Both the position numbers and the translations under genes were made by a program. A stretch of DNA of 63,862 nucleotides, the filler included. It is 5 parts of 5 records of this genome, joined end to end, with 100 filler letters (N's around TTAATTAATTAA, not from the genome) between each part and the next. Parts side by side here need not be neighbours in the genome. Positions count along the whole stretch, not along the records: positions 37,214 to 45,769 come from SRR31156797_4229; 4 more parts are not named here. One strand, written 5' to 3'. This document shows, piece by piece, positions 32,354 through 50,317 of the stretch. A model generated the notes under the pieces. The model was not told where the DNA came from and did no database searches. It was given only the letters and a program-made list of their open reading frames with translations. The first letter of the stretch is position 1, and each line of letters opens with the position of its first letter.

Positions 32354-34283
<1,930 letters not shown>

Positions 34284-34330
34284 TGAATCAAAAATATTTA
34301 TAGAAAATTAGAAATTGTGAGGAGATAGTT

Positions 34331-35494
34331 ATGAAACTATTATTTGATTTATCAGCAACTCAATCATCTGCAAAGATAAAAAATCATGGAGGGGCAGAAT
34401 ATTCAATAAGAGTATATAAAAAATTATTGGAATCTAAAGGTAAATTAGTTGATATAGAATCAATCTATGATAATTCCAGAGAGCTTCCTAAGGAAATAGA
34501 AACTTTGAACTTAGAACACAATGTTAAACTAGTTAACTTTGATTCATTTGAAGAACTTGAAGTGATAATTGAAAAAGGTCATTATGATGTGTTTTTTTCT
34601 GGTTTAGGAGATCATTATAGAGAGTTAAAAGTTCCAAAAAAGTGTAAATTAATTATAACAGTGCATGGTCTAAGGTATTTAGAAACTTTTGATGATGAAT
34701 ATAAAAAATATTATTCAAAAAATATGTTTAAATATCAAATTCGTGAATTTAGAGATAAAATATCAAAAAAGAATGAAAAAAAATATAAAGAAAGCTTTAT
34801 AAAACATAAAAAACTTCTAACAAATTTAAACAACAATGGTAAAATCATTGTTGATTCAAAACATTCTTTAAATTCGGTTTTAGCATATTTTGACGATATT
34901 GAAAGAGAAAATATAAAAGTTTTCTATCCGCCGGAAAAATTATCAACTAAGTTTAGTGATAGGATTGAGAAAAAAAACTATTTTTTACTTATTAGTGCGA
35001 ATAGATGGATAAAGAATCCAATTAGAGGAATTTTTGCCTTAGATGAATTTTTTAATAGAGATGAAAATAAAGATTTTAAGGCTATTATTTTAGGAAGTGC
35101 TCCAGATTCAGTTAAGAGTAAATTAAAAAATTTAGAAAATTTTGATTTCAGAGATTATGTTAGCACTGAAGAGCTTGAAAAATTATATGCTGAAGCCTAT
35201 GCTTTATTTTATCCAAGTTTAAATGAAGGATTTGGGTATCCTCCTCTTGAAGCGATGAAGTATGGAACACCGATTTTGGCTGCAGCAATTACCTCAATAC
35301 CTGAAGTTTGTGGAGATGCAGCGTTGTATTTTAATCCATATTCAATAAAGGAAATGGTAGGACGATTATTAGAAATCAAAGATGCAGATTATGGTATTCT
35401 TAGAAATAAAGCACTACAGCGATATAATCTTGTTAAGGAAAAACAGGAAAAAGATTTAGAAGATTTGATAGAGTTTTTATGTAAAAGAAATTAG
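34331..35494 (+). CDS. Glycosyltransferase family 4
   Basis: PSLNEGFGYPPLEAM motif. Confidence 0.9.
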   Translation: MKLLFDLSATQSSAKIKNHGGAEYSIRVYKKLLESKGKLVDIESIYDNSRELPKEIETLNLEHNVKLVNFDSFEELEVIIEKGHYDVFFSGLGDHYRELKVPKKCKLIITVHGLRYLETFDDEYKKYYSKNMFKYQIREFRDKISKKNEKKYKESFIKHKKLLTNLNNNGKIIVDSKHSLNSVLAYFDDIERENIKVFYPPEKLSTKFSDRIEKKNYFLLISANRWIKNPIRGIFALDEFFNRDENKDFKAIILGSAPDSVKSKLKNLENFDFRDYVSTEELEKLYAEAYALFYPSLNEGFGYPPLEAMKYGTPILAAAITSIPEVCGDAALYFNPYSIKEMVGRLLEIKDADYGILRNKALQRYNLVKEKQEKDLEDLIEFLCKRN

Positions 35495-35507
35495 AATTAT
35501 TTTAAGC

Positions 35508-35540
35508 AAACAGACTAGAGATCTATTTAGTCTGTTTTTT
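35508..35540 (+). terminator. Intrinsic terminator
   Basis: AAACAGACTA...TAGTCTGTTTTTT. Confidence 0.7.
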
Positions 35541-35580
35541 AAAGGAGAATAATTTTTGGAGCTTAATTCGGAGGATATAA

Positions 35581-36297
35581 ATGTATATAGAGTTTAGTAA
35601 GTTTTATGATGAAATAATGGGTCATATGGAGTATGACAAATGGATGGAGATTCTGGAAAAAGAATTTAGAGTAGAAGTTAAAAAAATCCTAGATTTAGGA
35701 TGTGGAACAGGAGAATTAAGTTATAGATTAGCGGAAAAAGATTATGATGTAACCGGTCTTGATTATTCAGAGGATATGTTATCTATAGCAGAACAAAAGC
35801 TCTATGAGAAAAATATAAAGATACCATTATTTTCTGGAGATATGAGAAATTTTGAAATAGGTGAAAAATATGATGCTGTAATATCTATGTTTGATACAGT
35901 AAATCATCTATTATCTTTACAGGAGTTTGAACAGGCTTTAATTCAAGTATCAAAACATCTTGAAAAAGGCGGACAGTTTATATTTGATTTGGCAACGAGA
36001 GAACTTATGGATGGGATGTTCAAAGATGAAATATTCGCTGATGACAGAGAAGGTTTAACTATTTTATGGCAGCACTGGATAGATGAAGAAACTGAACTAG
36101 ACAATGTAGTGATAAGCTTTTTTGTAGAAACAGAAGAGAATATTTATAGAAGAATAGATGAACATTATGAGAAGAAAATATTTAACGAAATAGATATAGA
36201 GTTGTTAATCAAGAAAAATGGCTTTGAAATTGTTAATAAGTTCACCTCTGATGAAATAGCAGGAAACAGAGTGGTTTATTCATTAAAAAAGCTTTAA
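35581..36297 (+). CDS. Class I SAM-dependent methyltransferase
   Basis: ILDLGCGTG, GLDYSEDML, GDMR, HLEKGGQFIFD. Confidence 0.9.
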   Translation: MYIEFSKFYDEIMGHMEYDKWMEILEKEFRVEVKKILDLGCGTGELSYRLAEKDYDVTGLDYSEDMLSIAEQKLYEKNIKIPLFSGDMRNFEIGEKYDAVISMFDTVNHLLSLQEFEQALIQVSKHLEKGGQFIFDLATRELMDGMFKDEIFADDREGLTILWQHWIDEETELDNVVISFFVETEENIYRRIDEHYEKKIFNEIDIELLIKKNGFEIVNKFTSDEIAGNRVVYSLKKL

Positions 36298-36381
36298 AAA
36301 TGAAGGAAATTGTTAAAGAATGTAGTATATAATTCTGTGAGTATTTATGTCATAATATTAATTTTGAATATAGGTGATATC

Positions 36382-36594
36382 TTGAGAGAGAATAAATATG
36401 GAGATGTATTTTATTATTTAGGTTTGTTAGGTCAGTTAGGCTTTAGCATAGTTGGAACAATATTATTATTTTTATTAGTATATAAACTGATAGAAAAATT
36501 TATTGGTGAGAATACATTACTATTTTTTGTATTTGTATTTGGTGGTGTTTTTTCCGGTTTTTATAATGCATATAGGTTAATAATGAAGAAATAA
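36382..36594 (+). CDS. AtpZ/AtpI-like small membrane protein
   Basis: Two TM helices (LGQLGFSI...GVFSGFYNAY) upstream of atpI; TTG start after AGGTG. Confidence 0.65.
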   Translation: MRENKYGDVFYYLGLLGQLGFSIVGTILLFLLVYKLIEKFIGENTLLFFVFVFGGVFSGFYNAYRLIMKK

Positions 36595-36724
36595 TGAATT
36601 TAGTGAAAAAAGCTTTTAAGCTTAATTAGGCAACTAAAAAAAATGACTTTAAAGTCAAAATATAAAAACTCTTATTTTACAAGGTTTAGAGAGTGAGTGT
36701 ATGTATAAAAAACTCCATATTTGA

Positions 36725-36753
36725 TTGACAAACATATTGATTTAAGATATACT
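36725..36753 (+). promoter_or_regulatory. Sigma-70 promoter of the atp operon
   Basis: TTGACA-N17-TATACT. Confidence 0.75.
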
Positions 36754-36874
36754 AAATTAGTATAATTGTGACAGAATGTTCATTGTACAGAACCTATAGT
36801 TACTTAGAAAAAATTAGTAAACTAATAAAGAAATTTTATTAGAGAAACAAACTGAATTGGAAATAGGTGAAAAA

Positions 36875-37113
36875 GTGGATAAAGATTTAAAATTAATTAT
36901 AAAAAAATCATTGATAACAAGCCTGATAATTTTAATTTACGGACTTGTAGTAATGGAAAAAGCTGTTTATGTAGCCATGTTCTCAGGAAGTTTGGTATCA
37001 ATTGCAGCTTTTTATTTGATCATCAAAGATACGGAATATATTGTTCGTAGCGGTAGAGGTTCGTATCAAACAGCTATCCTGAGCTATATAAAGCGATATG
37101 CTTTATATGGCAT
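36875..37113 (+). CDS. atpI: ATP synthase protein I, 3' truncated
   Basis: Hydrophobic helices with SYIKRYALY motif; GTG start after AGGTG; follows the AtpZ-like gene. Confidence 0.65.
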
Positions 37114-37213: not shown

Positions 37214-37229
37214 TCCCTATGGGATAGTT
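37214..37229 (+). repeat. Intergenic hairpin element A (3' half, cut by contig start)
   Basis: TCCCTATGGGATAGTT matches the 3' arm of element C (TCCCTATATGGGATAACT). Confidence 0.6.
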
Positions 37230-37262
37230 CTATCTCTTTAATAGAAATATGAGAGAAAAAAA

Positions 37263-37568
37263 ATGATTACAAAATTATTAGAAAATAAATACTATAAAGA
37301 GTATGAAGTTCTTGAAGGAACAGAAACATTTGTTTGGTTTGTAAAACCAGAACATACTTTAACTAACAAAGATATTGTATTAACAAAAGACATACTTGTT
37401 GATAGTGCGATAAAAGAAATTAAAGAATGGTGGCAAGTATTTGAAGAAGATGATAATGATTCAACAGATGATAACTTAGGAAGAGAAATAGAAAACTTTC
37501 TTTTAGAAGATGGTTTTCCAATAGAAATCATTGAAGAATCAATGAATCTTTATGCAAGTACTCACTAG
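37263..37568 (+). CDS. Hypothetical acidic protein
   Basis: 101-aa ORF, co-oriented, AT-rich codon use consistent with neighbours. Confidence 0.7.
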   Translation: MITKLLENKYYKEYEVLEGTETFVWFVKPEHTLTNKDIVLTKDILVDSAIKEIKEWWQVFEEDDNDSTDDNLGREIENFLLEDGFPIEIIEESMNLYASTH

Positions 37569-37584
37569 ATAAAAAACTTAACTT

Positions 37585-37627
37585 AACCCAACAGGGGAAA
37601 CTAATTCCCTTTCGTTGGGTTTTTTTG
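37585..37627 (+). repeat. Intergenic hairpin element B (also terminator-like)
   Basis: AACCCAACAGGGGAA-actaa-TTCCCTTTCGTTGGGTT plus T tract. Confidence 0.6.
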
Positions 37628-37665
37628 TTTCCTCTGAAAATTAAAACAATCATAAGGAAATAAAA

Positions 37666-39888
37666 ATGTCAAAAACACCAATTTCAAAAATTATTAATGA
37701 AAATATCAACAATGGAACTGATTTTGAGTTCTATCCTACAACTAATGAAATATTAGATGCTATGTATTGGGATATAAAAGAAAATAAAAAAGATTATCGT
37801 AATAGATATGAATATCAATCAATTGATATCTTAGATATTGGAGCAGGTAATTGTAAGCTATATGATAGATTTAGAGAAATTTCTAATGAAAATAAAGAGT
37901 ATGACTCTTACAATAATTTAGAAAGAGAAAAAATGCTTGGTATTTCTAAGTATATGGTTATTGAAAAATCTCAAACTCTTTTAAATCATATGCCTTCAGA
38001 AGTATTTGTTGTTGGAACAGATTTTCATGAAAACTTTTTAGTTGATAAAAAAACTGATATTGTTTTTTGTAATCCTCCATACTCAGAGTATGCACATTGG
38101 ACACAAAGAATAATAAGAGAAGCTAATGCTGAATTCATTTATCTTGTTATTCCAAAAAGATGGGGTAAATCGCAAGGTATTAGAAAAGCATTAAAAGATA
38201 GAAAAGCTAGAGTTAAAATCGTTGGAGATTTTAGTTTTGAGGATGCTGAAGATAGAAAAGCAAGAGCTAAAGTATCTTTAGTAAAAGTTCTACTTAAGCC
38301 AAAAATCAAACATAATATATCAGGTGAATTTTTTGAAGGTAGTCAAATAGATCCATTTGAAATGTGGATAAATGAAACATTCAACTTTACAAATGCTCAA
38401 CCTAAAAAGAAAGATGATTCTTTCTATGAAAAACAAAAAGCAAGAGAAGAGTTAAAAAACCAATTAGTTAATGCTACTGATTTAGTTGGAACACTTATAG
38501 AGCTTTATAATAAAGAAATGGAAAAACTTGTAACTAATTATAAAAAAGTAGCTGATTTAGATTCTGAAATTTTAGAAGAACTTAATGTGGACATTAAAAG
38601 TCTTAAACAAGGTCTTATGACAAAGATAGAAGGATTAAAGTATAAATATTGGCAAGAAGTATTTGATAACTTAGGAGATATTAAAAAAAGACTTACTAAA
38701 AGAAGTAGAAATACTTTAGTAAATATTTTAAATTCTCAAACAAATATAGACTTTACTAGTAGTAATATTAGGGCTGTTGTTATTTGGGTTATTAAAAATG
38801 CTAATAAATACTATGATAATCAAATGCTAGAAGTTTATGATGATTTTACAACTGAAGAAGGTATCACACTTTATAAATCAAATCAACGATTTAATAAAGA
38901 TGATTTTAGATATCTAAAAAGAGATAAAAAATTAGAAAAATATTCACTGGATTATAGACTTGTAAAGCATGGATTTTTAGATGATTATGACAAAAAATAT
39001 AGAAGTAATCTTTCTCAAGCTCAAATTGATGCTATTGAAGATATCGTAACTATTGGTAAAAACTTAGGTTTTAAAATCAATACTTTTGACTTTAGCACTA
39101 TTCAAAGAGGTAATAAAATCAACTTATGCTTTACAAGAGAAGGTGAAAATAAATTCCTTAAAGTAGGAACAAAAACTGCTAAAGGAAAAATTGAAGAAGT
39201 ATATTTTCATACAAATACACCTAATGAAGATGGTGAAAGAGTAATGGAAAAAGATGGAGTCTTCTATGTTTATTCAGAAGATAGCAATAATGAATACCAA
39301 TACTTAATAAATGGTGTTTACTATCATCCTGATGCAGTTTATACACAAGATGAAGTATTTACTACTATAAAAGGTTTCCAAAACGGTAATGTACATTATC
39401 AATTCAATAAAAAATTCATTAAGAAACTAAACTTAGAAGTAGGAAGATTAAGAGGATGGATTAAATCACCTTCTGAAGCTGCTGAAGAGTTTGATATCAC
39501 AATGGAAGAAGCTGCTGAATATTGGAAATCTACTTATCAAGTATTGCCTTCAACACTATCTCATTTATTACCTCAACCTAAAAAAGAACCTGTTTTTAAT
39601 ATTGAAACAATAGAGAATAATGAAGTTGGACTATTTCAAGATGATAAATTAATTTATAAATCTGAAAAAGGTGCAATTTTAGCTCTTAGTGAAATTTCTT
39701 TAGAAGATATTCCTGAAGAAACAAGTAAGCAGTTTATGGAGAAAGTGTATATTAATTCAATTACAGAAGAAGAGAATGTAATTGTAGTAGATAATGTTAT
39801 TGAAGTAAAAGTTGAAGATACAGAATTAAGCAAAAATATATATGAAAAAGAACAACTAGAGGCATTTAACTCTGGTTCATTGTTTTAA
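37666..39888 (+). CDS. Orphan N6-adenine DNA methyltransferase with long C-terminal (DUF4942-like) region
   Basis: EFYPT, ILDIGAG (motif I), CNPPY (motif IV); C-terminal KGFQNGNVHYQF. Confidence 0.8.
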   Translation: MSKTPISKIINENINNGTDFEFYPTTNEILDAMYWDIKENKKDYRNRYEYQSIDILDIGAGNCKLYDRFREISNENKEYDSYNNLEREKMLGISKYMVIEKSQTLLNHMPSEVFVVGTDFHENFLVDKKTDIVFCNPPYSEYAHWTQRIIREANAEFIYLVIPKRWGKSQGIRKALKDRKARVKIVGDFSFEDAEDRKARAKVSLVKVLLKPKIKHNISGEFFEGSQIDPFEMWINETFNFTNAQPKKKDDSFYEKQKAREELKNQLVNATDLVGTLIELYNKEMEKLVTNYKKVADLDSEILEELNVDIKSLKQGLMTKIEGLKYKYWQEVFDNLGDIKKRLTKRSRNTLVNILNSQTNIDFTSSNIRAVVIWVIKNANKYYDNQMLEVYDDFTTEEGITLYKSNQRFNKDDFRYLKRDKKLEKYSLDYRLVKHGFLDDYDKKYRSNLSQAQIDAIEDIVTIGKNLGFKINTFDFSTIQRGNKINLCFTREGENKFLKVGTKTAKGKIEEVYFHTNTPNEDGERVMEKDGVFYVYSEDSNNEYQYLINGVYYHPDAVYTQDEVFTTIKGFQNGNVHYQFNKKFIKKLNLEVGRLRGWIKSPSEAAEEFDITMEEAAEYWKSTYQVLPSTLSHLLPQPKKEPVFNIETIENNEVGLFQDDKLIYKSEKGAILALSEISLEDIPEETSKQFMEKVYINSITEEENVIVVDNVIEVKVEDTELSKNIYEKEQLEAFNSGSLF

Positions 39889-39898
39889 GGATAATAAT

Positions 39899-40141
39899 AT
39901 GACTGTTAATAATGGAATAGATTTTGAAATAGAATCAAAACATTTGTTTGAGGCTTTAAGTATTGAAGGATTAAACAGACACCATATTATTTATGATGAA
40001 TATGAAGAAAAGATTATCATTGATATTGATGAAATAACAAATGATAATGAGGAAGAAGACTACTCATTTCTTACTGATATTGATAAAGGAATATTTACTT
40101 ATGGAACTTGTTCTGTAGTAAAACCTTATGAGAATATGTAG
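39899..40141 (+). CDS. Hypothetical small acidic protein
   Basis: 80 aa, AAGGA RBS, strongly D/E-rich. Confidence 0.7.
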   Translation: MTVNNGIDFEIESKHLFEALSIEGLNRHHIIYDEYEEKIIIDIDEITNDNEEEDYSFLTDIDKGIFTYGTCSVVKPYENM

Positions 40142-40148
40142 AAGAAAT

Positions 40149-40203
40149 GCTTTAGGCTAACTAACCCAATAGGGATATTTGATTATCCCTATATGGGATA
40201 ACT
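40149..40203 (+). repeat. Intergenic hairpin element C
   Basis: GCTTTAGGCT then CCCAATAGGGAT-loop-ATCCCTATATGGG-ATAACT. Confidence 0.7.
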
Positions 40204-40229
40204 ATATTCCTTTTATTAAAAGGAAAATT

Positions 40230-41489
40230 ATGGAAAAGATATCAGAAGCTGCATTAAATGTACTTAAAAATGTAACAATTGATGAAAAAGCTTTCAAGGT
40301 AAAATTAAATAGTGGTGAATTAGATAGAAAACTATATAAAGAAGTAGATGAGGTTTTTAATAGATTAAGAGGAAAGTGGAATAAGAAATCAAATTCTCAT
40401 ATATTTGAAGAAAATCCAAAGTCACTTATAGAAGCAATTCTTCAAACTGAAGAAATGCCTCCAAAAAATCCAACTGCATTTTTCCCAACACCTAAATCTT
40501 TAGTAGAAGATATGTTTAGAATTGCAGAGTTTACTGATTTATCAACTTGTGAATATATAGAAGATTTTCGTATCTTAGAACCAAGTGCAGGTAATGGAAA
40601 TATTGCAAAATATATAAGAGAGATTGCTCCAAATGCAACTTTAGATTTAGTTGAATATTTACCATTAAATCAAAAATTATTAGAGAAAGAAGGTTTCAAT
40701 CCTATTTGTGGTGATTTCTTAGAATATAACAAAGATTATTCTACTAAATATAACTACATATTTATGAATCCTCCTTTTTCTTTAGAACACGATAAGAAAG
40801 CATATATTACTCATATAAATCATGCTTTAAAAATGCTAAAGCCTTCAGGTACATTAATTGCGATTGCTCCTTGTGGCTTTCTACATAATAGTACTAAAAA
40901 AGACAAAGACTTCTTTAATCTAGTTGCAGAACATGGACGTATTTATAATAATGAGAAGGACTCATTTAAAGGTTCAGGAACAAATGTAGATACAGTAACT
41001 ATAGAGTTAAGTACTTCTGATTGGAGGTCTAAACCTTATAGTGGATATAAAAACTATTTTGTATTTTCATTAATACTTTATCTACTAAATAACGATATTA
41101 AATATGCACAAAAAGCTGAAAAACTTTTTAATTCTAAAGAATTTCCAAAAGATAAACAATTTGAAAATTTGATTGAAGACTTAATTAAAAGTCTTATTAA
41201 AACTGAAGAATTGATTTCTTGGAAATATATGGATTTATATATAGAAAGATTAAAAGAAGTGTGCGTAGAACATAGAGTAGAAAATGAATTATATATTCCA
41301 GATGAATTAAATAATTATGTTTATGATAATGAAATTGAAGAAGAGAAATCAAAAGAAGAATTTACAATATTTATTCCAGAAAGTAAGAAAACTAAAGATG
41401 AAGTTTCAGGAAAAAATATTGTAGTAGATGAAAATAAGTTAAATGAAATAATAAAAGAGACTGGTTATTTTCAACCTGTACTTTTTTAA
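40230..41489 (+). CDS. Orphan N6-adenine DNA methyltransferase
   Basis: FFPTP, ILEPSAGNG, CGDFL, FMNPPF; start at MEKIS after AAGGA. Confidence 0.85.
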   Translation: MEKISEAALNVLKNVTIDEKAFKVKLNSGELDRKLYKEVDEVFNRLRGKWNKKSNSHIFEENPKSLIEAILQTEEMPPKNPTAFFPTPKSLVEDMFRIAEFTDLSTCEYIEDFRILEPSAGNGNIAKYIREIAPNATLDLVEYLPLNQKLLEKEGFNPICGDFLEYNKDYSTKYNYIFMNPPFSLEHDKKAYITHINHALKMLKPSGTLIAIAPCGFLHNSTKKDKDFFNLVAEHGRIYNNEKDSFKGSGTNVDTVTIELSTSDWRSKPYSGYKNYFVFSLILYLLNNDIKYAQKAEKLFNSKEFPKDKQFENLIEDLIKSLIKTEELISWKYMDLYIERLKEVCVEHRVENELYIPDELNNYVYDNEIEEEKSKEEFTIFIPESKKTKDEVSGKNIVVDENKLNEIIKETGYFQPVLF

Positions 41490-41505
41490 TACCAAAAGGA
41501 AAAAA

Positions 41506-41877
41506 ATGAACAACAAAACATTAAAATTTGAAATACTTGAAGAAGAAATTTTAAAAGATATTTTAAATAAATCAAAAATTGGTCCAATAGAAACTGATGT
41601 TTTTTTAAAAACATTTCCACTTGTAGAATCAGAAAATGAAGAAGAAAAGCATTTTGATACTGCAAAACAAGTAATAGAATTTCTAAATAATCACAACATT
41701 AATAGTGAAGAACATTATAAATATGTATTTACTTGTGTTGATGGAGATTCAGGAGATTTAATCTTAATAAATGGATGGCATTTTTGTAATCGGTTATTTT
41801 ATGTAGTATCAACAAAAAGTTGGAGTACAGGAGATAAGGATAAAGATTCAGAAGTTTATATTGAAACAATGTATTAA
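41506..41877 (+). CDS. Hypothetical protein
   Basis: 123 aa, AAGGA RBS; NGWHFCNRLFY segment. Confidence 0.7.
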   Translation: MNNKTLKFEILEEEILKDILNKSKIGPIETDVFLKTFPLVESENEEEKHFDTAKQVIEFLNNHNINSEEHYKYVFTCVDGDSGDLILINGWHFCNRLFYVVSTKSWSTGDKDKDSEVYIETMY

Positions 41878-41885
41878 TAAATAGT

Positions 41886-41955
41886 GTTGCCTAAAAGGCT
41901 AGTATTTCCCATTAAGGGAGTTTAGGATTTTCTAACTCCCATTTGGGGATTAGTC
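41886..41955 (+). repeat. Intergenic hairpin element D
   Basis: GTTGCCT-aaa-AGGCT then CCCATTAAGGGAGTT-loop-AACTCCCATTTGGGG-ATTAGT. Confidence 0.7.
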
Positions 41956-41975
41956 TGTCCTTTTAAGGAAACAAA

Positions 41976-43868
41976 ATGGTTATGAAAAATGATTTAGTAA
42001 ATAATACTATTGATTTAGAAAATAAAGCAATAGGAATTATTCAAGAAAACTATTTAAACTCAAAAGAAACAAAAGTTTGTTTAGGTTTTTCAGGAGGAAA
42101 AGATTCAACTGTAACCCTAGATTTAACCCTTAAAGCAATTATGGATTTACCTATTTCTAAAAGAACGAAACCTATATATGTTATTTACAGTTGTACAGGT
42201 GTTGAGCTTGACCCTGTTGATGTGGTAGTAAATTATCATATTGAAAGGTTTGAGAAATTTGTAGAAGAAAACAATCTACCTTTTTATTTTAAAAAAGTTA
42301 AACCTGCATTAAAACATACCTATTGGTCAATTGTTATAGCAGCAGGTGGTATGCTTTTTAGAAGTGACAAAAGAGATTGTACTACAAAGATGAAACTTAT
42401 ACCTCAACAAAAAATGATGATTGAAACATTTACTAAAAAGATTGTTGAAGAGTCTTTATTTGAAGATGATATAGCAGTTGAAAAGGTAGTTGGTAAAATC
42501 AAATATTTAGGAATTATGGGTGTTAGAAAAGAAGAGTCAGATGATAGAAAAAAAAGAATAGAAAAACATTCAGTGCAAGGTGCAGAAAATCTTATGGATT
42601 TTGATAATCGTACTACTATTATACCTATTTCGGATTGGAGTACTTCAGATGTATGGAATTATTTATATCTAAGAACTTTAGATTGGGTTGATGGATATGC
42701 ATTATCAAAAATTTATGCAGAGTCTTCTGGGCAAGGAAGTAATGAGTGCAACACTATTGTAAATGGTAGCGAAGAGGCTAAAAAACCAGGCTGCTCCATG
42801 TCAGGAAGACACGGATGTTGGGTTTGTAGCTTAGTATTAAATGAAGACAAAGCTTTGCAAAGCTTAGTGCAATATTATCCTTATATGAAACCTTTAAAAG
42901 AGTTTCGTGATTGGCTTGTAAATACATACACTTATGCAGATTGGAAGTATAGAGATTTATATAACCATAAGGAGCATAAAAGATTAATGTATAGACTTGA
43001 TACTAATCATAGAAGTGGCATGGTTATTCCTGGTGGATACACTTTGGAAGTTAGAAAACTTATGCTTACAAAACTTCTTGAAACAGAACAAGCAGTGCAG
43101 CAATATGAGGGTAAAGAGAATATGCAGCTAATAAGTGATGAAGAGCTTAATTATATACAAGAAAGATGGTTTAAAGAAGGTGACTATAGATTTACAGCAA
43201 AAGAAATTGCAAATAGATTTAATAGGAATGTTTCGATAAAAAAAGATTTAGAGGATATGGCAAGAACAATTAGTTATTTTGCAAAAACTTTTAAATATTC
43301 AACTTCATCATTTGCTAATGATTATGCTCCTGATAGTAGATTTAGAAAAGATGATTTGTTTAATTGGATTCCAATTGGACTATTTTCTTCCAAACACTAT
43401 GATAGGTTTGTAACTCAATTAGCTATTCAGATGAAAGAAGTATATAAAGATAAATGGATTAGTAAGTACTTGTTATTGCTTTTCCCTAAAAAAGAAAAAG
43501 AATACAAAGTTGTTCTACAAGTAGTGAAAAAATTAAAAATCTCTGTGATGTATTTTCCTTCAATAAGAGAAGAAGAATGTTTAAGGTTTGAACATAGTGA
43601 AGATAAAGTAGATTATCTTAATTTTGTGGATCAAATGGAAAGAGATATGAAAGCAGATGAAGAGGAATTTGGATTATTTAATTTTGAATTTAGTGAAAGA
43701 ACCACTCCCAAAGGATGGTTTGAAAGTAAAGCTAAAAAGTTTCAAGAATTGTATAAAGATTTTTTTGAAGCATATATGTATGGTATAGAAAATCAAATTA
43801 CTGATTTTTTAGATAATCCATTAATCCCATATAAAGAGAAAGATAAAATTATTAGCACATGGTACTAA
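41976..43868 (+). CDS. DndC-like PAPS-reductase family protein
   Basis: PP-loop FSGGKDS, RDCTTKMK, GVRKEES, PISDWSTSDVW, RHGCWVC, EDKAL, GGYTLEVRK. Confidence 0.8.
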   Translation: MVMKNDLVNNTIDLENKAIGIIQENYLNSKETKVCLGFSGGKDSTVTLDLTLKAIMDLPISKRTKPIYVIYSCTGVELDPVDVVVNYHIERFEKFVEENNLPFYFKKVKPALKHTYWSIVIAAGGMLFRSDKRDCTTKMKLIPQQKMMIETFTKKIVEESLFEDDIAVEKVVGKIKYLGIMGVRKEESDDRKKRIEKHSVQGAENLMDFDNRTTIIPISDWSTSDVWNYLYLRTLDWVDGYALSKIYAESSGQGSNECNTIVNGSEEAKKPGCSMSGRHGCWVCSLVLNEDKALQSLVQYYPYMKPLKEFRDWLVNTYTYADWKYRDLYNHKEHKRLMYRLDTNHRSGMVIPGGYTLEVRKLMLTKLLETEQAVQQYEGKENMQLISDEELNYIQERWFKEGDYRFTAKEIANRFNRNVSIKKDLEDMARTISYFAKTFKYSTSSFANDYAPDSRFRKDDLFNWIPIGLFSSKHYDRFVTQLAIQMKEVYKDKWISKYLLLLFPKKEKEYKVVLQVVKKLKISVMYFPSIREEECLRFEHSEDKVDYLNFVDQMERDMKADEEEFGLFNFEFSERTTPKGWFESKAKKFQELYKDFFEAYMYGIENQITDFLDNPLIPYKEKDKIISTWY

Positions 43869-43875
43869 TTTTATA

Positions 43876-43938
43876 GTTGCCTTAATAGGCTTATCATACC
43901 CAAAGAGGGTTTTATATTAATCCTCTTTGAGGATTGAT
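43876..43938 (+). repeat. Intergenic hairpin element E
   Basis: GTTGCCT-taat-AGGCT then CCCAAAGAGGGTT-loop-AATCCTCTTTGAGG-ATTGAT. Confidence 0.7.
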
Positions 43939-43957
43939 TTGTTTAAAAGGAAAAATT

Positions 43958-44296
43958 ATGAAAAAATGTATTATTTGCGGTGGAGAACTTATAAAAGAAG
44001 AAACAGGACTTGCTGAATTTACTTGTAAAGATTGTGATTGTTTACAAACATTTTATAGTAGAGAAGTAGAGATTAACTCAAATATCAGTTTTTATTTAGC
44101 CAACTATGGAACAGAAAAAAATATTGAAATTTTTCAAGACTATGAAAAGGCAAAAAAAGAGAGTATAGATAATTTAGTTTATCAAGCAATTCTTAACCAT
44201 TCTCATGTTTATTTTGATATTAATCTAAATGGTTGGAACTATGAAGATAAATTTGATTTATTTTTAACAACTCCATTGTTAGTAGGAGATAAATAA
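43958..44296 (+). CDS. Hypothetical protein with N-terminal zinc-ribbon motif
   Basis: CIICGG...CKDC; start at MKKCI after AAGGA. Confidence 0.7.
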   Translation: MKKCIICGGELIKEETGLAEFTCKDCDCLQTFYSREVEINSNISFYLANYGTEKNIEIFQDYEKAKKESIDNLVYQAILNHSHVYFDINLNGWNYEDKFDLFLTTPLLVGDK

Positions 44297-45522
44297 TGTG
44301 TTGTTTGATAGACGAACCAAAAACAAATAAAAAGAAACAAGTATCAGCTCTTGAAACAATTAAAAAACATTTTGATGTTGTTAAAGTAATTGAATACGAA
44401 GATTATGATGTATTGGAATGTAAGAATGTAGTAAAGAAACTAAATGCAGGATGTATTCAATTTGAGACTTGGTTAAATTTAAAAATCAAGAAAAACAATA
44501 TTGAAGACTTTTGTAAAGAAGTTCTTAAATATAAAGATAAACTTTTTAATAATACTACATCAAAAACACTTGTACAAACTTCACTCTTTGAAGATGATGT
44601 ACTTACAACTAATAAATTAACAATCAAAGACTTATCATTTTGGCAATCATTGAATGATTATTACATATATGATTACGATAATTATATTGATGATATCCCC
44701 CAAACAAATGAAGAAATGATTGAAATTGTAAAAGAATGTCTAACTAAGTATGTTAAAAATCCAGAAATGAAATTTGAAAAGTTTTGTTTTAATGATGACT
44801 ATAGCTATTTTAGGACAAATGAACCTATAAGTGATAGAGAAATGTTATCAAGACTTTACAGCTCTATTAGAATTTATTTTGGGATATCTACATATGTAGA
44901 AGAGACGTACACTATTGATTTATCTAATGAGGTAAGACAATTACACTCAATAGGTGATAAAAATAAAAGATTTTATGCAGATTATTATGGAACTGATTAT
45001 GTAATTAGTTTTGATGATGAAAAATCAAAAGTTTATGACTTGTACGATAAAGATTTTTGTACTTGGCTTAGAGAACTTTTTAATATTCCATATAGAAAAC
45101 CTTTAGAAGATATTGAAGTAATAAAAGAGGGGCTAGTTAATTTCTCAAAAAGATTTTTTGATGAGGATAACTCTTTAGAATCATTTATTGCTATCTCAAA
45201 AGATGCTAAAGATTTTAGAAAAAATATCTTCTCTTATTTAAGAAAAGATTCTTCTAAATTTTCAGGTCATAGTGGAGGTGGTTGTGGACCACTTGATGAT
45301 TGTTATAGTGTAAATTATACATATGACATTAATGATCTAGCTATTGTAATTACTCAGTTAAATACTTATAGAAAACAGTTAGGTAGAGAAACTGAAGAAA
45401 ACAATGATATCTGGAAAAAAGATTCAACTTGCATTTTAAATTTAAAAGGAAATGAAGTGTTTGAAGGTATGTATACATACTTATCAAATAAACTAACATA
45501 TAAACAAGCCACATTGTTTTAA
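44296..45522 (+). CDS. Hypothetical protein with putative beta-clamp-binding motifs
   Basis: 408-aa ORF with AGGAG RBS; internal QTSLF and C-terminal QATLF. Confidence 0.75.
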   Translation: MCCLIDEPKTNKKKQVSALETIKKHFDVVKVIEYEDYDVLECKNVVKKLNAGCIQFETWLNLKIKKNNIEDFCKEVLKYKDKLFNNTTSKTLVQTSLFEDDVLTTNKLTIKDLSFWQSLNDYYIYDYDNYIDDIPQTNEEMIEIVKECLTKYVKNPEMKFEKFCFNDDYSYFRTNEPISDREMLSRLYSSIRIYFGISTYVEETYTIDLSNEVRQLHSIGDKNKRFYADYYGTDYVISFDDEKSKVYDLYDKDFCTWLRELFNIPYRKPLEDIEVIKEGLVNFSKRFFDEDNSLESFIAISKDAKDFRKNIFSYLRKDSSKFSGHSGGGCGPLDDCYSVNYTYDINDLAIVITQLNTYRKQLGRETEENNDIWKKDSTCILNLKGNEVFEGMYTYLSNKLTYKQATLF

Positions 45523-45538
45523 AAAAGGATAAAGAATT

Positions 45539-45730
45539 ATGGATTATATCAAAGAATATAATGAAGTTTATACTCCTAAAGCACAAATTGCAAAGAGAAT
45601 GATTAAAGATGGTTTTGACACAAGTGCAATAGTAGCTGAAATAAAAAAGATTAGAGAAGAATTAAATATCAAGAGAGATATTACTCCTTCAGAAATTGTC
45701 TCAGCTCTTGCTCGACAATTAAAAAAATAA
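45539..45730 (+). CDS. Hypothetical small protein
   Basis: 63 aa, AAGGA RBS. Confidence 0.65.
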   Translation: MDYIKEYNEVYTPKAQIAKRMIKDGFDTSAIVAEIKKIREELNIKRDITPSEIVSALARQLKK

Positions 45731-45741
45731 AAAATAAATAA

Positions 45742-45769
45742 GTTGCTCATTTTGAGCTAACCCACTAGG
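45742..45769 (+). repeat. Intergenic hairpin element F (5' half, cut by contig end)
   Basis: GTTGCTC-atttt-GAGCT-aa-CCCACTAGG. Confidence 0.65.
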
Positions 45770-45869: not shown

Positions 45870-45870
45870 G

Positions 45871-46545
45871 GATAAAAAGAAAGTTGAAGAGTATTTTGAA
45901 ATTATGAGAAGAAGTATGGGGTTTTTGCAAGGTTCAACTGATACTTCAGAAGCTCAAGAAGAATCCTTGTCAGATTTTCATGCAGATAAAAGTGATTCTG
46001 GTAGTGGAGATGATAATGGACAAAATACAGAAGCTGCTGATATTTCACAAAAAGTTGAAGAGGTAACTCAGGAGTTTAATGATATTAGTGAAGATCCCAA
46101 TCAACAAGTAGAATTAACTATGAAAGGAAATAATGAATTTACCCTTGATATCCCTTCTAGTTTAATGTTTGAAGAGGGTGACTATCAACTTGATAATCCA
46201 AATGCAAAAAGATTTATTACAAAACTAGCAAATGTATTAAGAACGATGACTAATCGATTTGATATAGAAGTAAGTGGTCATACAGCAACAAATTATTTGC
46301 GTACAGGTGGGATTCCTAGAGATTCATGGGATCTTTCGGCATTACGATCAATTGCCGTAATAAAAGAGTTGATAAAAAACAGAATTGATCCTGCTATTTT
46401 AAAAGTAAGTGCTTTTGGGTCATATAGACCTAAGAGTGATAATGCTTTTGAAAATCGAAGAGTAGAGATTCGTTTTGTCTCTTCTAGTGAAAATAATAGT
46501 AGAATGGCGCAAGAAGAAAATTTTTTTGATAGAATAGAAAACTAA
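45871..46545 (+). CDS. motB: Flagellar stator MotB-like protein (OmpA domain), 5' truncated
   Basis: VSGHT, WDLSALRS, AFGSYRP, NRRVEI; flagellar context. Confidence 0.8.
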   Translation, partial: DKKKVEEYFEIMRRSMGFLQGSTDTSEAQEESLSDFHADKSDSGSGDDNGQNTEAADISQKVEEVTQEFNDISEDPNQQVELTMKGNNEFTLDIPSSLMFEEGDYQLDNPNAKRFITKLANVLRTMTNRFDIEVSGHTATNYLRTGGIPRDSWDLSALRSIAVIKELIKNRIDPAILKVSAFGSYRPKSDNAFENRRVEIRFVSSSENNSRMAQEENFFDRIEN

Positions 46546-46560
46546 AAGTGGAGGTTTCAC

Positions 46561-46863
46561 ATGGAGATAACGAATCAATTTGTTGATATAAACACACTTA
46601 GACCAAATAAACTACAAAATTTAAAAAGTGAAAATCTAAAATTAACAGAAGATAACGCTTTAAGAGATGTATGTAATGATTTTGAAGCATTTTTTATGAA
46701 CCAAATATTAGAAACTTCACTAAAGTCATCTAACATTGCAGGTGAGGGAACAGGATCAGATATTATTAAAAGTATGTATACCGATGCATTATCAAGAAAT
46801 TCTGCTGGTACCTTAGGAGTAAGTGATATGTTATATAAGTTTTTAAGTGAGAATAAAAAATGA
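46561..46863 (+). CDS. flgJ: Rod-binding protein (short FlgJ)
   Basis: LRDVCNDFEAFFMNQIL...LGVSDMLY. Confidence 0.75.
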   Translation: MEITNQFVDINTLRPNKLQNLKSENLKLTEDNALRDVCNDFEAFFMNQILETSLKSSNIAGEGTGSDIIKSMYTDALSRNSAGTLGVSDMLYKFLSENKK

Positions 46864-47237
46864 TAGAAGAGATAATACAACAGTTAAAAGAAACAACTAA
46901 TACTTTATATAGTGCTATAGTTGATGATATTGAAGATGTTAAAAAAGCAAATCATGAAAGTTTAGTTTCACGAAATAGTGTAAAGTTAGAGCTTATGGAT
47001 GCACTAAAAAACTTAAAAGAGGAGCTCAATGTTCAATTGGCTGCTGAATATAAAGATGGTAAAGATATCTCAGTATATAAAGAAGCAATAGATGAGTTAG
47101 AATTAGATCTAAGACAATTATATGAAACAAATGGAAAGTTAGCTTCAATAGTTCTTCCAGTAAAAGAGATGTATAAAGAGATCATTGATGAGATCACAGA
47201 GAAAAATGGTGGTAGATTGATAGATCTAAAGGCATAG
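46860..47237 (+). CDS. FlgN-like helical flagellar chaperone
   Basis: All-helical 125 aa, DIEDVKKANHE motif, coupled to flgJ. Confidence 0.5.
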   Translation: MIEEIIQQLKETTNTLYSAIVDDIEDVKKANHESLVSRNSVKLELMDALKNLKEELNVQLAAEYKDGKDISVYKEAIDELELDLRQLYETNGKLASIVLPVKEMYKEIIDEITEKNGGRLIDLKA

Positions 47238-47245
47238 TTGTATTA

Positions 47246-47650
47246 ATGAAATTATTAATGAAATCTTTTTTTTTACTTTTGTTGTTTTCTTCTAGTTTAT
47301 TTTCAGTACAATTAGTACCCATGTCAAAAAAAGCTATTAAATACAAAGAAAAAATATATTCTCATGATGTATATTTTATAGAGGCATCTGAAAAATATTC
47401 TTGCAAAGAGTATTTGGTTCCAAGTTTATTAAAGCAAAATCTCTATTATGCTAGAAGATATATTCAAAAGAATAGAGCAATTTGTGACAAAGATGCCATA
47501 TACAAACAAAAAAATACAATACAATTTAAATTTGGTAATGTGATTATTGAAAAAGAGGGTGAACTTTTAAAAGAAACTGATGAATATATCAAGATTAAGA
47601 ATAGTGATGGTAAAATAATTAAGATTTATAAAGATGGAAAAACTAGATGA
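47246..47650 (+). CDS. Secreted flagellar protein, possibly a truncated FlgA-like chaperone
   Basis: Signal peptide; C-terminal IKIKNSDGKII resembles the FlgA C-terminus. Confidence 0.45.
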   Translation: MKLLMKSFFLLLLFSSSLFSVQLVPMSKKAIKYKEKIYSHDVYFIEASEKYSCKEYLVPSLLKQNLYYARRYIQKNRAICDKDAIYKQKNTIQFKFGNVIIEKEGELLKETDEYIKIKNSDGKIIKIYKDGKTR

Positions 47651-48786: not shown

Positions 48787-48803
48787 TAAAAGGCAGAATT
48801 ATA

Positions 48804-49622
48804 TTGTTTAATGGTATATCAGAACAGGCCAATAAACTTGTTGCTCTTACTCAAAAACAGCATTTAAAAAACTCTAGAACAAAAATCATAACAATAAGTT
48901 CAGGAAAAGGTGGAGTGGGAAAGTCTACGCTCACATCAAATATAGCCTATTTGTTGTCTCAACGTGGAAAAAAAGTTGCGATTTTTGATGCTGATATGGG
49001 ATTAGCAAATTTACAAGTTATGTTTGATGTAAAACCTGAATATACGATATATGATTACCTTGATGGAAAGTGTAACTTAAAAAATATTTTTACGGTTACA
49101 GATATTCCAAATGTGACACTTATTGCTGGAAAAAGTGGATACCAATATACAAACTCACATCAAAATATGCTTTTCTCTTCCCTTATTCATCAAATAGTTA
49201 GTTTAGAACAATTTGATATATTACTAATTGATACAGGAGCTGGGCTTCATGGAAATGTACAAGAGTTTCTTTCTCTATCAAATAATATTGTAGCAGTCAC
49301 AACTACTGACCCTAGTGCATTAACTGATGTTTATGCCCTTTTAAAGATGATAAGTTTGAAAAAAGAGAGACTATTTTTATGCTTCAATTATACTTCAAAA
49401 TATGAAACAGGTGAAACAATTACTAAATCTTTGAAAAATTTAGCACTAAAAAATAAACTTAATAGAAAATTTATGGTACAATATATAGGAAACGTGAGTG
49501 AAGAAAAAGGTATTACAATAAGCGGAAGACTCAGAAAGCTTTTTTCTAAAGAGTTAAAGAATGAAAAAGCAACACATGAGCTTCGAATTATTGTAAATAA
49601 CTTACTTGAACTGATCGATTAA
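48804..49622 (+). CDS. flhG: MinD-like ATPase FlhG/FleN
   Basis: SGKGGVGKS, DADMGLAN, IDTGAG; follows flhF. Confidence 0.92.
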   Translation: MFNGISEQANKLVALTQKQHLKNSRTKIITISSGKGGVGKSTLTSNIAYLLSQRGKKVAIFDADMGLANLQVMFDVKPEYTIYDYLDGKCNLKNIFTVTDIPNVTLIAGKSGYQYTNSHQNMLFSSLIHQIVSLEQFDILLIDTGAGLHGNVQEFLSLSNNIVAVTTTDPSALTDVYALLKMISLKKERLFLCFNYTSKYETGETITKSLKNLALKNKLNRKFMVQYIGNVSEEKGITISGRLRKLFSKELKNEKATHELRIIVNNLLELID

Positions 49623-49630
49623 GGGGAATA

Positions 49631-49963: not shown

Positions 49964-49972
49964 GGATAGATT

Positions 49973-50296: not shown

Positions 50297-50317
50297 AACT
50301 GTTAAGAGGATAAAAAG

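Follow-up and report, generated by a model that had tools for sequence, protein, structure and literature searches.

A structure-conserved three-hairpin element heading gene units in co-directional arrays on conjugative plasmids and islands of Campylobacterota

The establishment (leading) region of an incoming plasmid decides its survival of the host defences and, to our knowledge, almost nothing is known about leading-region gene expression outside Enterobacterales and Bacillus. Repeated signals associated with mobile genes have nevertheless been described in several systems. The leading region of the IncN plasmid pKM101 contains CUP (conserved upstream) repeats, and in 1997 Masai and Arai reportedly described single-strand promoters (Frpo/ssi) in the leading regions of plasmids. 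Integron attC sites lie at the 3′ end of their cassettes, need IntI and have the cores RYYYAAC (5′) and GTTRRRY (3′). In the RNase III hairpins of the T7 early genes and in the lambda N leader, processing could leave protective ends and change the access to the ribosome-binding site (RBS), while the SAS/ESAS sequences of Cluster K mycobacteriophages are based on a 13-bp motif (SAS). Finally, the promoter-early stem-loop (PeSL) cassettes of T4-type phages combine a consensus sigma-70 promoter with a stem-loop acting as terminator (PMC2839356), and Frpo hairpins have long stems with −35, −10 and UP boxes, transcription using the T-strand (PMC11541004).

The element presented here is a previously undescribed sequence of ~100 nt, conserved in structure and composed of three hairpins, that heads each unit of one to three genes. 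It resembles the PeSL (PMC2839356) in several respects: both are short composite intergenic stem-loop motifs, repeated upstream of small cargo genes where the mobile element is variable; in both, exchanges between copies delete, insert or replace units, the crossovers lying within or beside the stem-loop; and both lack a dedicated integrase, the element's own recombination genes being suspected. Unlike the PeSL, whose hosts are phages, it is present on conjugative plasmids and islands, no promoter consensus was found in it, one of its three hairpins sequesters the Shine-Dalgarno (SD) sequence, and it shows covariation with a sense-strand bias. Similarly to SAS/ESAS, a conserved motif with an adjacent inverted repeat appears just upstream of many start codons of one mobile genome; however, the conserved feature here is the three-hairpin fold rather than a 13-bp sequence motif.

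The DNA that was analysed (the window, 63,862 nucleotides in total) consists of five contigs with linkers (N/TTAATTAATTAA) between them. Positions 37,214–45,769 correspond to one whole contig of 8,556 bases, both ends of which fall inside an element, and its nine genes are all on the + strand (Table 1). Homologs of the 408-aa protein (g8) were found in all five replicons compared, and only two protein families, the primase among them, were common to all five. The Atlas search with g8 returned no usable match, the contig had no match by megablast against plasmids and phages, single-protein locus scans with its proteins found no relatives, and an alignment scan of viral contigs revealed no relative of it. 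Moreover, ARAGORN found no tRNA-like genes, and the domain search of the contig genes found no integrase. The preliminary description of this DNA had proposed an anti-defence cargo, which was not supported, its basis being only two DNA methyltransferases and one DndC/PAPS-reductase-like gene.

Table 1. Gene units and copies of the element on the contig (window positions).
Feature	Positions	Strand	Description
Element A	37214..37262	+	3′ half: right arm of the large hairpin TCCCTATGGG, tail ATAGTTCTAT, SD-pairing hairpin TCTCT..GAGAGA; ATG at 37263
g1	37263..37568	+	101 aa, no family
Element B	37585..37665	+	Bulged CCCA..TGGG-type hairpin AACCCAACAGGGG..CCCTTTCGTTGGGTT, then T7 (37585-37626); no small hairpin; second hairpin in which TTTCCT pairs with the SD AAGGAAA; ATG at 37666
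g2 + g3 unit	37666..40141	+	g2, 740-aa DUF4942-type DNA methyltransferase with NPPY motif; g3, 80 aa
Element C	40145..40229	+	Complete; degenerate small hairpin 40149-40164, large hairpin 40165-40197, tail ATAACTATAT; anti-SD:SD hairpin 40207-40225; ATG at 40230
g4 + g5 unit	40230..41877	+	g4, 419-aa N6-adenine-type methyltransferase (NPPF); g5, 123 aa
Element D	41885..41975	+	Complete; small hairpin GCCT-AAA-AGGC 41889-41899, large hairpin 41908-41947 (long-loop subtype), tail ATTAGTCTGT; SD AAGGA 41966-41970; ATG at 41976
g6 unit	41976..43868	+	630-aa PAPS-reductase/DndC-like protein
Element E	43875..43957	+	Complete; small hairpin GCCT-TAAT-AGGC 43879-43890, large hairpin 43899-43931, tail ATTGATTTGT; SD AAAGGA; ATG at 43958
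g7 + g8 + g9 unit	43958..45730	+	112 aa, 408 aa, 63 aa
Element F	45741..45769	+	5′ part: AGTT, small hairpin GCTCA-TTT-TGAGC, TAA, CCCACTAGG = first 9 nt of the large hairpin

All six sites claimed in the preliminary description exist. The same architecture had been ascribed to every larger intergenic gap, and all gaps of at least 39 nt do carry it, but it is complete only in elements C, D and E; just half of A and half of F are present, and there is no small hairpin in B. Element A is partial because the contig start cuts inside its large hairpin, and element F because the contig end cuts it. Positions 37,214–37,243 were common to three other Logan contigs of the source run, so the contig broke at a repeated element; one of those contigs has a C-like left arm and AAATTA directly before 37,214. 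The region around element F (45,716–45,769) was marked as repeated. A circular contig was rejected, as the back-joint from 40,178 to 37,214 appears at the end of a 5.5-kb neighbouring contig of equal depth, and element A thus has a C-like left arm.

The order of the parts in the element is AGUU, P1 (a hairpin of 4–5 bp with the stem GCNN/NNGC), UAA, P2, P3 and the start codon. P2 is a bulged hairpin (CCCA..GGG-loop-CCC..UGGG) lengthened by the pairing of GCUAA before it with UUGGU, UUAGU or UAGGU after it, an extension overlooked by the preliminary description, in which the sequence 'ATWRYT' following the large hairpin was not paired with the GCTAA preceding it. The rod formed by P2 and its extension has a median of 17 bp (IQR 16–19). 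P3, also overlooked, is a hairpin in which a pyrimidine stretch pairs with the SD sequence; this pairing is local in elements A, B and C, while the partner of the SD in D and E is the 5′ arm of the small hairpin. The start codon follows ~37 nt after P2, the median distance from the end of the model to the start codon being 24 nt (IQR 22–25). In plasmid pAMYT, the SD core was fully paired upstream in 80% of the 15 element-headed genes, compared to 12% of the 42 other array genes and 6% of the 104 other genes. A layout in which the SD of each unit is paired was not reported for leading regions in the literature searched.

The four full gaps of the contig were folded, with z-scores on the + strand of −4.74 (B), −4.06 (C), −4.01 (D) and −4.84 (E), and none of 200 shuffles was as stable. 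In all four, the fold of the + strand was more stable than that of the − strand (for element E, −27.8 vs. −20.9 kcal/mol). The likeness in sequence among the copies was low, the direct-repeat finder linking just parts of A/C and C/E, so their resemblance is structural. In agreement with the earlier claim that the sequence varies while the pairing is kept, the arms AGGGAT/ATCCCT, GGGAGTT/AACTCCC and GAGGGTT/AATCCTC were found on this one contig. Furthermore, the large hairpin of element D had its closest relative in pAMYT (L001:16985-17028), and that of element E was near-identical to one at L002:11668.

An alignment of 23 whole gaps by MAFFT, analysed with RNAalifold, gave only 4 pairs (−0.5 kcal/mol) and no useful consensus, this alignment not being structure-aware, and the covariance model was therefore started from a hand-given structure on a subset of 12 sequences. 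In alignment A6, which has 60 distinct rows aligned to the model's own structure, so that pair counts lean towards it, 87.7% of the cells were paired compared to 79.3% in shuffles, and double-sided changes affected 70 cells vs. 22.9 expected, a number reached by none of 500 shuffles. This is a significant covariation, and all four P1 pairs covary. Since the copies are related, the P-values that follow overstate their independence: the + strand fold was more stable in 38 of 59 copies and the − strand fold in 20, with one tie (P = 0.006); the mean for the P2-extension duplex was −2.69 kcal/mol on the + strand vs. −1.08 kcal/mol on the − strand (P = 2e−8); and the P3 region was more stable on the + strand in 40 of 57 copies and on the − strand in 13 (P = 6e−5). 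Taken over the whole element, the strand bias is moderate (38 vs. 20). For the P2 extension, matched partners beat swapped ones in 5000 of 5000 permutations. Moreover, G:U pairs outnumbered A:C pairs (27 vs. 9) in helices 1–3 of the family, which bears out the earlier observation that wobble pairs favour the + strand. G:T pairs form in single-stranded DNA too, so folding of the sense-strand DNA also fits.

When the whole window was searched with model R2 (filters off), E-values of 4e−10, 0.002 and 0.14 were obtained for elements C, E and D (+ strand), respectively, and 0.33 for the cut element F, while only the large hairpin of element B could be aligned. The best match in the other four contigs had an E-value of 0.96, the element being found only on this contig. 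In pAMYT, models R1 and R2 matched 19 copies, only on the gene strand and between 170.3 kb and 52.5 kb, all of them within one co-directional array of 57 kb (SSB, RecT, primase, methyltransferases); the remaining 100 kb (L010 + L011) gave one match with an E-value of 0.86. Matches were present in four of the five whole genomes searched, confined to few plasmid-like contigs and to one strand each, and nine of 151 Arcobacteraceae genomes had matches. Building a covariance model, as had been proposed, thus gave matches only in mobile cargo arrays, on conjugative plasmids and islands of Campylobacterota, and ordinary chromosomal terminators were not picked up. The comparison with Rfam 15 yielded two chance-level matches on the contig (E-values of 0.77 and 4.8) and none at E-values up to 0.5 on 57.7 kb of the pAMYT array, in support of the suggestion that the element was undescribed. 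An exact-pattern scan matched 6 genome stretches (4 of them outside Campylobacterota) and 21 viral ones, which were discarded as chance, none of the 25 loci tested matching R2.

The arrays bearing the element belong to Campylobacterota/Arcobacter-like bacteria, where they are part of the establishment (leading-like) region of conjugative plasmids with an F-type T4SS and of integrated elements; for such regions the covariance model provides a searchable marker. They begin with SSB, RecT, primase and beta clamp genes and contain many methyltransferases. RecT was present in both arrays examined, and a PD-(D/E)XK nuclease is annotated in pAMYT. A relaxase and an oriT were not found in pAMYT (Pfam, 18 ORFs scanned).

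Regarding transcription signals, no conserved −10 box was found before AGTTGC, where there is just an A-rich run at −5 to −2 with no fixed T/A columns, and a candidate −10 box in the tail was discarded, its second position lacking a conserved A. None of the fixed columns of the element holds a conserved −35 or −10 box, and sigma-70-like sites were not enriched in the contig (46 found vs. 53.8 expected). Judging from their sequence, the elements do not appear to be promoters themselves. In pAMYT, five identical repeats of 310–360 nt each have a TATAAT ~35 nt upstream of an element; these long repeats divide the array, so the other copies of the element lie inside operons, an argument for separate promoters that is drawn from this one plasmid. 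Like CUP repeats, the long repeats of pAMYT carry a likely promoter and an RBS and run into the first codons of unrelated genes; unlike in the CUP case, the sequences are unrelated, and the ~100-nt element forms the 3′ part of the long repeats but mostly occurs without them. The contig itself has no long repeats of the pAMYT type.

Unit boundaries coincide with elements and, as the preliminary description had suggested by speaking of shuffling, element-bounded units are gained, lost and reordered. In particular, element D and g6 (41,886–43,875, exactly 1,990 nt) are missing from run X3, which comes from a related strain; its record joins 41,885 to 43,876, the seven letters GTTGCCT being compatible with either side and the shorter side comprising 255 letters. 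Between G036 and G113:C8, a replacement (1.1 kb vs. 5.8 kb) had both of its boundaries at P1 or immediately after it. Both of these well-resolved breakpoints are in P1, which fits a dedicated DNA recombination site as well. Furthermore, flank homology ended at the 5′ edge of the element in three pairs and began at the ATG in two pairs. The order of the gene units differed among the window, L002, L003, L009 and pAMYT, homologs of g2 occupied other positions in L003 and G001:C7, and g5 was headed by its own element in L002. One motif therefore bounds units that are exchanged between replicons. The other joints, with 21–30 letters on the shorter side, are weak, and only those of runs X2 and X4 with inserted letters were used, as hints: in both runs another element replaces g5 after g4, and in X2 g8 is joined directly to the 3′ part of a C-like element.

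As for the enzymes that might be involved, a search of the 48 ORFs of at least 110 aa on the 66-kb contig G001:C7 revealed neither a tyrosine nor a serine recombinase. The integrases of pAMYT (at 66.5 kb and 151–156 kb) are outside the array and at least 11 kb away from it, and no integron-type integrase was found with the arrays.

The best explanation, to which about an even chance is given, is that of an RNA module, intercistronic or in the 5′ UTR, that governs the processing, stability and translation of the mRNA and whose conserved DNA is also a recombination hotspot. The element would act mainly in the transcript, heading each unit of one to three genes inside long co-directional operons. 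The P1–P2 rod may be a processing and/or stabilising signal, possibly a target of RNase III or RNase Y/J type or a protective end, by which one long early transcript would yield unit mRNAs that are each stable on their own, while P3 would keep the translation of each unit gated. An interrupted rod of 17 bp is compatible with RNase III, which at sites of the T7 early type cleaves an interrupted duplex of about two helical turns, but is short for it. By analogy, the arrangement may be likened to the T7 early RNase III sites and the lambda N leader, where the co-directional early genes of an invader are likewise separated by bulged hairpins, a relation in sequence being neither expected nor seen. 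As for the exchanges, whose pattern is apparent from the comparisons above, the element DNA, and above all P1, would be the preferred crossover point at which units are added, deleted and reordered, and the RecT/nuclease pair at the head of the arrays may assist. If the RNA role is true, the element would represent a new class of cis-regulatory RNA.

Two readings that give more weight to the DNA are both considered unlikely. According to the first, each junction has a dual use: the small hairpin would be a structure-specific single-stranded recombination site during transfer, acting through the RecT/nuclease of the array or an unrecognised recombinase and allowing promoterless anti-restriction cassettes to be captured and shuffled, and the same sequence, once transcribed, would give every captured gene a processing signal and a gated RBS; such a junction would be the functional counterpart, in the establishment regions of conjugative plasmids, of integron attC or phage PeSL. 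The second, likewise doubtful, takes the element primarily as a DNA recombination site, with the folded small hairpin (GTT..AAC, variable stem, bulged T) recognized as single-stranded DNA or a cruciform in an attC-like insertion and excision of cassettes; were the DNA role primary, this would be a new cassette system for anti-defence cargo. The clean presence/absence of element D plus g6 with its joint inside GTTGCCT and the replacement bounded at P1 speak for such a site, as do the edges of flank homology, the differing unit orders, the structure kept despite a varying sequence, the RecT of both arrays examined and the nuclease annotated in pAMYT. However, GTTGCCT is the longest identity run between D and E, so recombination by short homology explains the joint equally well, and just two breakpoints are resolved. 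Neither the fixed distance to the start codon nor the SD-pairing hairpin is needed by a pure recombination site, and the recombinase searches in G001:C7 and pAMYT also argue against it. As in attC sites, imperfect hairpins conserved in structure above sequence bound co-directional cassettes that are precisely gained or lost at the site, with a joint in a GTT-containing core. Unlike attC, the order is 5′-GTTGC ... GCTAAC-3′, the element is locked to the SD and the start codon of the next gene, and no IntI-like gene was seen.

Rather improbable is a double-stranded operator, in which GGGATA..TATCCC inside CCCA..TGGG would be bound by a plasmid repressor that shuts the unit promoters after establishment, as Reg576 does on p576. 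The palindrome does lie at a fixed distance upstream of each unit start, and the establishment genes of p576 are under repeated operators at four promoters with the heptamer TTATCCC (PMC6294495). Nevertheless, this heptamer was not enriched in the pAMYT array (5 in 57 kb vs. 5 in 113 kb of pAMYT), the arms differ within one replicon yet stay complementary, no −10 box is conserved at a fixed column, and neither the wobble asymmetry nor the covariation of the extension is expected for double-stranded DNA.

A single-strand initiation signal on the transferred strand, either an Frpo-type promoter or a hairpin signal for a DnaG-like plasmid primase, is improbable. The leading-like start of the arrays (SSB, RecT, primase, beta clamp and many methyltransferases) would suit it, since published leading regions carry such genes together with Frpo hairpins (PMC11541004), and the primase is one of the two families shared by all five replicons. 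As with Frpo/ssi, hairpin-forming repeats precede SSB, methyltransferase and anti-restriction-type genes of a region that establishes a plasmid. However, Frpo is a long stem mimicking a duplex promoter on the template strand, while the present stems are short (4–17 bp) and lack −35, −10 and UP boxes, and the better pairing is on the sense strand, from which the downstream genes cannot be transcribed. The Frpo/ssi analogy of the preliminary description is not supported on these grounds, and with 19 copies in an array and an SD linked to every one of them, the element is unlike ssi sites.

Very improbable, finally, are terminators or insulators between units, although the PeSL stem-loops act as terminators (PMC2839356) and T-runs directly follow the hairpin in element B (T7) and its L002 orthologue (T9), because C, D, E and most family members have no such U-tract, the 59 aligned ones having ATAGGT/ATTGGT-like tails that pair back, the terminator scan of the contig listed just part of element E, and the model skips ordinary chromosomal terminators, its matches being confined to plasmid-like contigs in the whole genomes searched and to 9 of 151 Arcobacteraceae genomes. 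Element B, with its hairpin and T7, looks like an intrinsic terminator; in L002, the orthologous B-like copy is placed behind a homolog of g1 (49% identity), and g8 follows a B-like hairpin there.

The contig at 37214-45769 carried nine genes, all on the + strand, of which two methyltransferases and a DndC/PAPS-reductase-like protein could be assigned (table), the remaining six proteins having no family. The preliminary description had placed one hairpin architecture in every large intergenic gap, and it was present in all gaps of at least 39 nt. Elements C, D and E were complete, while A and F were halves, because the contig starts and stops within an element. In the source run, its first 30 bases were common to three other contigs, a C-like left arm and AAATTA directly preceded base 37214, and its final 54 bases were flagged as repeated, so the assembly broke at repeat copies and a circular contig was ruled out. 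The four complete gaps folded with z-scores from -4.0 to -4.8 (0 of 200 shuffles equally stable), more stably on the + strand in all four. A direct-repeat finder barely connected the copies, so their likeness is structural. Element B had no small hairpin and a T7 run directly after the large one, thus looking like an intrinsic terminator by its sequence, and its orthologue in the related locus L002, with T9, stood behind the homologous gene. In the minimum-energy folds of D and E, the large hairpin was enclosed by pairing of the small-hairpin 5′ arm, GCCU, with the Shine-Dalgarno (SD) region, AAGG; where no local anti-SD exists, this role may fall to the small hairpin.

Coordinates and sizes of the features considered
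Feature	Position	Strand	Size	Remarks
Finding contig	37214-45769		8,556 bases	27% G+C
DUF4942-type methyltransferase		+	740 aa	finding contig
Second adenine-type methyltransferase (g4)		+	419 aa	finding contig
DndC/PAPS-reductase-like protein (g6)		+	630 aa	finding contig
g8	44296-45522	+	408 aa	no family in Pfam or PHROGs
Element D	41885-41975
Element E	43875-43957
Contig 1	1-28836			42% G+C; T9SS Por_Secre_tail and PKD proteins, ECF sigma
Contigs 2-4	including 28937-37113, 45870-57617			27-30% G+C; LPS sugar genes, flagellar export genes
Contig 5	57718-63862			33% G+C; Peptidase_S74 tail-fibre-type protein
pAMYT repeat	15247 (L012:15247)
pAMYT repeat	22146 (L001:6035)
pAMYT repeat	35843 (L001:19732)
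pAMYT repeat	45995 (L001:29884)
pAMYT repeat	170342 (L013:12662)
HipA/HTH pair	143.8-145.4 kb			pAMYT, outside the array
PemK/MazF-type toxin gene	L066:16832-17266			G001:C7, within the Sulfurimonas array
TTC(A/T)GAGGGTnTTTnnTTGT..AAAA motif	L005:9390-9420			also in L019, L047, L048, L056, L057

No near-identical DNA to this contig was found in plasmid or phage collections. Homologs of the PAPS-reductase-like protein (32-36% identical) appeared on plasmid-like contigs of Arcobacter, Sulfurimonas, Sulfurospirillum and Poseidonibacter, and a 33% homolog on the complete 170-kb plasmid pAMYT of Malaciobacter mytili, which has F-type transfer genes (TraU, TraH, TraG-N, TraE/K, VirB10 and a coupling protein). 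A single long co-directional array ran on pAMYT from ~170.3 kb through the origin to ~55 kb, headed by a PD-(D/E)XK nuclease, RecT, SSB, a DnaG-like primase, a beta clamp and a helicase; behind these came several genes for DNA methyltransferases and many others of unknown function. The same layout was found on a 66-kb contig of Sulfurimonas indica (G001:C7), in the order TraN-like, SSB, RecT and primase, followed by a DUF4942 methyltransferase, PemK, a beta clamp and the PAPS-reductase-like gene. Comparable gene content is described for establishment or leading-type regions of other plasmids (excerpts of PMC11541004), and both arrays would by gene content be such regions; 'leading' is a putative label, as neither a relaxase nor an oriT was found on pAMYT in a Pfam scan of 18 ORFs. 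Homologs of g8 occurred in all five element-bearing replicons compared, only the primase family being equally widespread, and an Atlas search with g8 gave no usable match. The protein may serve a core role in establishment or act as a partner to the element.

Three hairpins conserved in structure make up the element, a new module recognisable by eye between the genes of related loci. A covariance model was seeded with 12 copies of hand-given structure, re-aligned and rebuilt (R2; 28 sequences, 13 pairs). Its 81 matches gave 60 distinct rows, in which the 13 modelled pairs were 87.7% paired (79.3% in shuffles), with 70 cells of two-sided change versus 22.9 expected, spread over 10 of the 13 pairs; none of 500 shuffles reached any of these measures, and sliding the structure along the alignment lowered pairing to 26-63%. 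These figures, supportive rather than exact given an alignment fitted to the model and copies that share ancestry, agree with the earlier claim that pairing is kept while sequence varies. In the small hairpin, each of the four pairs covaried (GCTC/GAGC, GCCT/AGGC, GATC/GATC, AGTC/GACT, GGTC/GACC). Moreover, GCTAA (or GCTTA, GCCTA, GCCAA) 5′ of the large hairpin paired TTAGT/TTGGT, TAAGT/TAGGT and the like 3′ of it, the 'ATWRYT' first noted there being this 3′ partner; in these columns, which lay outside the model's structure, matched partners averaged -2.69 and swapped ones -1.58 kcal/mol (0 of 5000 permutations as low). The extension overlaps the small-hairpin 3′ arm, so the two are alternatives, and the whole rod had a median of 17 pairs (IQR 16-19). 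In the third hairpin a pyrimidine stretch paired the SD sequence, the model end lying a median of 24 nt (IQR 22-25) before the start codon in the 57 copies, out of 61, whose start could be assigned. On pAMYT, counting predicted genes with ATG and an SD-like motif only, the SD core was fully paired upstream in 80% of the genes headed by an element (n = 15), 12% of the remaining array genes (n = 42) and 6% of the other genes counted (n = 104), with mean folding energies of -7.8, -4.1 and -2.9 kcal/mol, respectively.

The units headed by the element were exchanged between related sequences. In run X3, from a related strain, a 691-nt contig joined 41885 to 43876, skipping exactly 1,990 nt (element D from GTTGCCT and the PAPS-reductase-like gene), with seven letters fitting both sides and a shorter side of 255 letters. 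By weaker, short-sided joints, runs X2 and X4 had g4 followed by 34 other letters with a new small hairpin and then a C-like large hairpin in place of g5, and X2 joined a C-like 3′ part to g8. Across loci, the same genes stood in differing orders behind differing elements. A chromosomal island (G036) and a 185-kb contig (G113:C8), collinear at 70-88% identity, differed by a 1.1-kb versus 5.8-kb replacement, whose left edge lay just after a small hairpin and whose right edge at the start of the next one; two blocks were also transposed. Among 61 copies (59 distinct family rows plus D and E), flank homology stopped at the element 5′ edge in three pairs and started at the ATG, with unrelated sequence upstream, in two. 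As a pattern, the proposed shuffling of cassettes is supported by the X3 joint, the replacement and the varied gene orders, and it follows that of the PeSL cassettes of T4-type phages (excerpts of PMC2839356). Short-homology exchange is tentatively favoured over a dedicated site-specific recombination system at the element, two resolved breakpoints being too few to decide. The reasons are that D and E share no longer identical run than GTTGCCT, that both arrays examined contain RecT (the PD-(D/E)XK nuclease being annotated in pAMYT) and that no integrase was found accompanying the arrays of pAMYT and G001:C7.

One duplicate row from the reverse strand was left out when the strand preference was evaluated. 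The whole element was more stable on the + strand in 38 copies and on the - strand in 20 (59 copies, one tie; P = 0.006), the P2-extension duplex averaged -2.69 versus -1.08 kcal/mol (P = 2e-8), the P3 region was more stable on + in 40 of 57 copies and on - in 13 (P = 6e-5), and helices 1-3 held 27 G:U versus 9 A:C, in line with the wobble bias noticed initially. Therefore, the fold appears, from sequence comparison, to be selected on the sense strand. The SD-pairing hairpin makes sense only in mRNA, and the remainder of the module, standing at a fixed distance from it, is thereby linked to it. An Frpo-type promoter needs a fold on the transferred strand, which serves as template, and a long stem with -35, -10 and UP boxes (excerpts of PMC11541004), and neither feature holds for the element; of the preliminary description, the architecture stood and the cassette pattern was supported, but the ssDNA promoter was not supported. 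No conserved -10 was found before AGTTGC (only an A-rich run) or at fixed tail columns, and sigma-70-like sites showed no excess. The likeliest mechanism, in which our confidence is evenly balanced, is an RNA-level intercistronic module: within the transcript, the element would set processing, stability and translational gating of each unit, and its conserved DNA would double as a recombination hotspot.

Five identical repeats of ~310-360 nt on pAMYT each comprised an upstream part of 195-247 nt, with the palindrome TATCTATAATAATAATAGATA and a TATAAT ~35 nt upstream of the element, then the element and RBS, and extended to the end of codon four (ATG AGT GCA AAT) in five different genes. They probably mark operon starts, in which case the other pAMYT copies would lie inside operons. 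The CUP-type arrangement is known from other plasmids, and these repeats are similarly arranged. In several replicons, the motif TTC(A/T)GAGGGTnTTTnnTTGT..AAAA stood just upstream of AGTTGC, in the 30 nt before several elements; the related TTTCAGAGT occurred in the long pAMYT repeats, and the motif was absent from the window copies.

With filters off, R2 found C (E = 4e-10), E (0.002), D (0.14; a long-loop subtype poorly covered by R2) and F (0.33; cut by the contig end), and nothing better than E = 0.96 on the other four window contigs. On pAMYT, 19 element places, all on the gene strand, lay between 170,342 and 52,513, and the remaining 100 kb gave a single match (E = 0.86). Four of five whole genomes scanned (at most 150 candidates scored per genome) had matches, on one or a few plasmid-like contigs and one strand each. 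Under strict filters (34 candidates scored per genome), matches were found in at least 9 of 151 Arcobacteraceae genomes, two of them on megabase contigs and hence in integrated elements. Matches were thus confined to plasmid-like or integrated elements of few genomes, and the refuting condition named in the preliminary description, a model that also picks up ordinary chromosomal terminators, did not come about. No Rfam 15 family matched the element, and no description of it was found in the literature searched on leading regions and ssDNA promoters, Arcobacter plasmid stem-loop repeats or pAMYT. Exact-pattern matches in IMG/VR and non-Campylobacterota genomes were chance, 0 of 25 loci matching the model.

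The window's five contigs were separated by linkers of 44 N, TTAATTAATTAA and 44 N, with stops in all frames. The other four contigs (29-42% G+C) held unrelated chromosomal, flagellar or phage-tail-like genes and carry no information on the context of the finding contig. The PAPS-reductase-like protein was also listed on an 18,849-base contig, so a longer assembly of the locus may exist. Finally, contig 1 looks like a different organism from contigs 2-4, and the bin is probably mixed.
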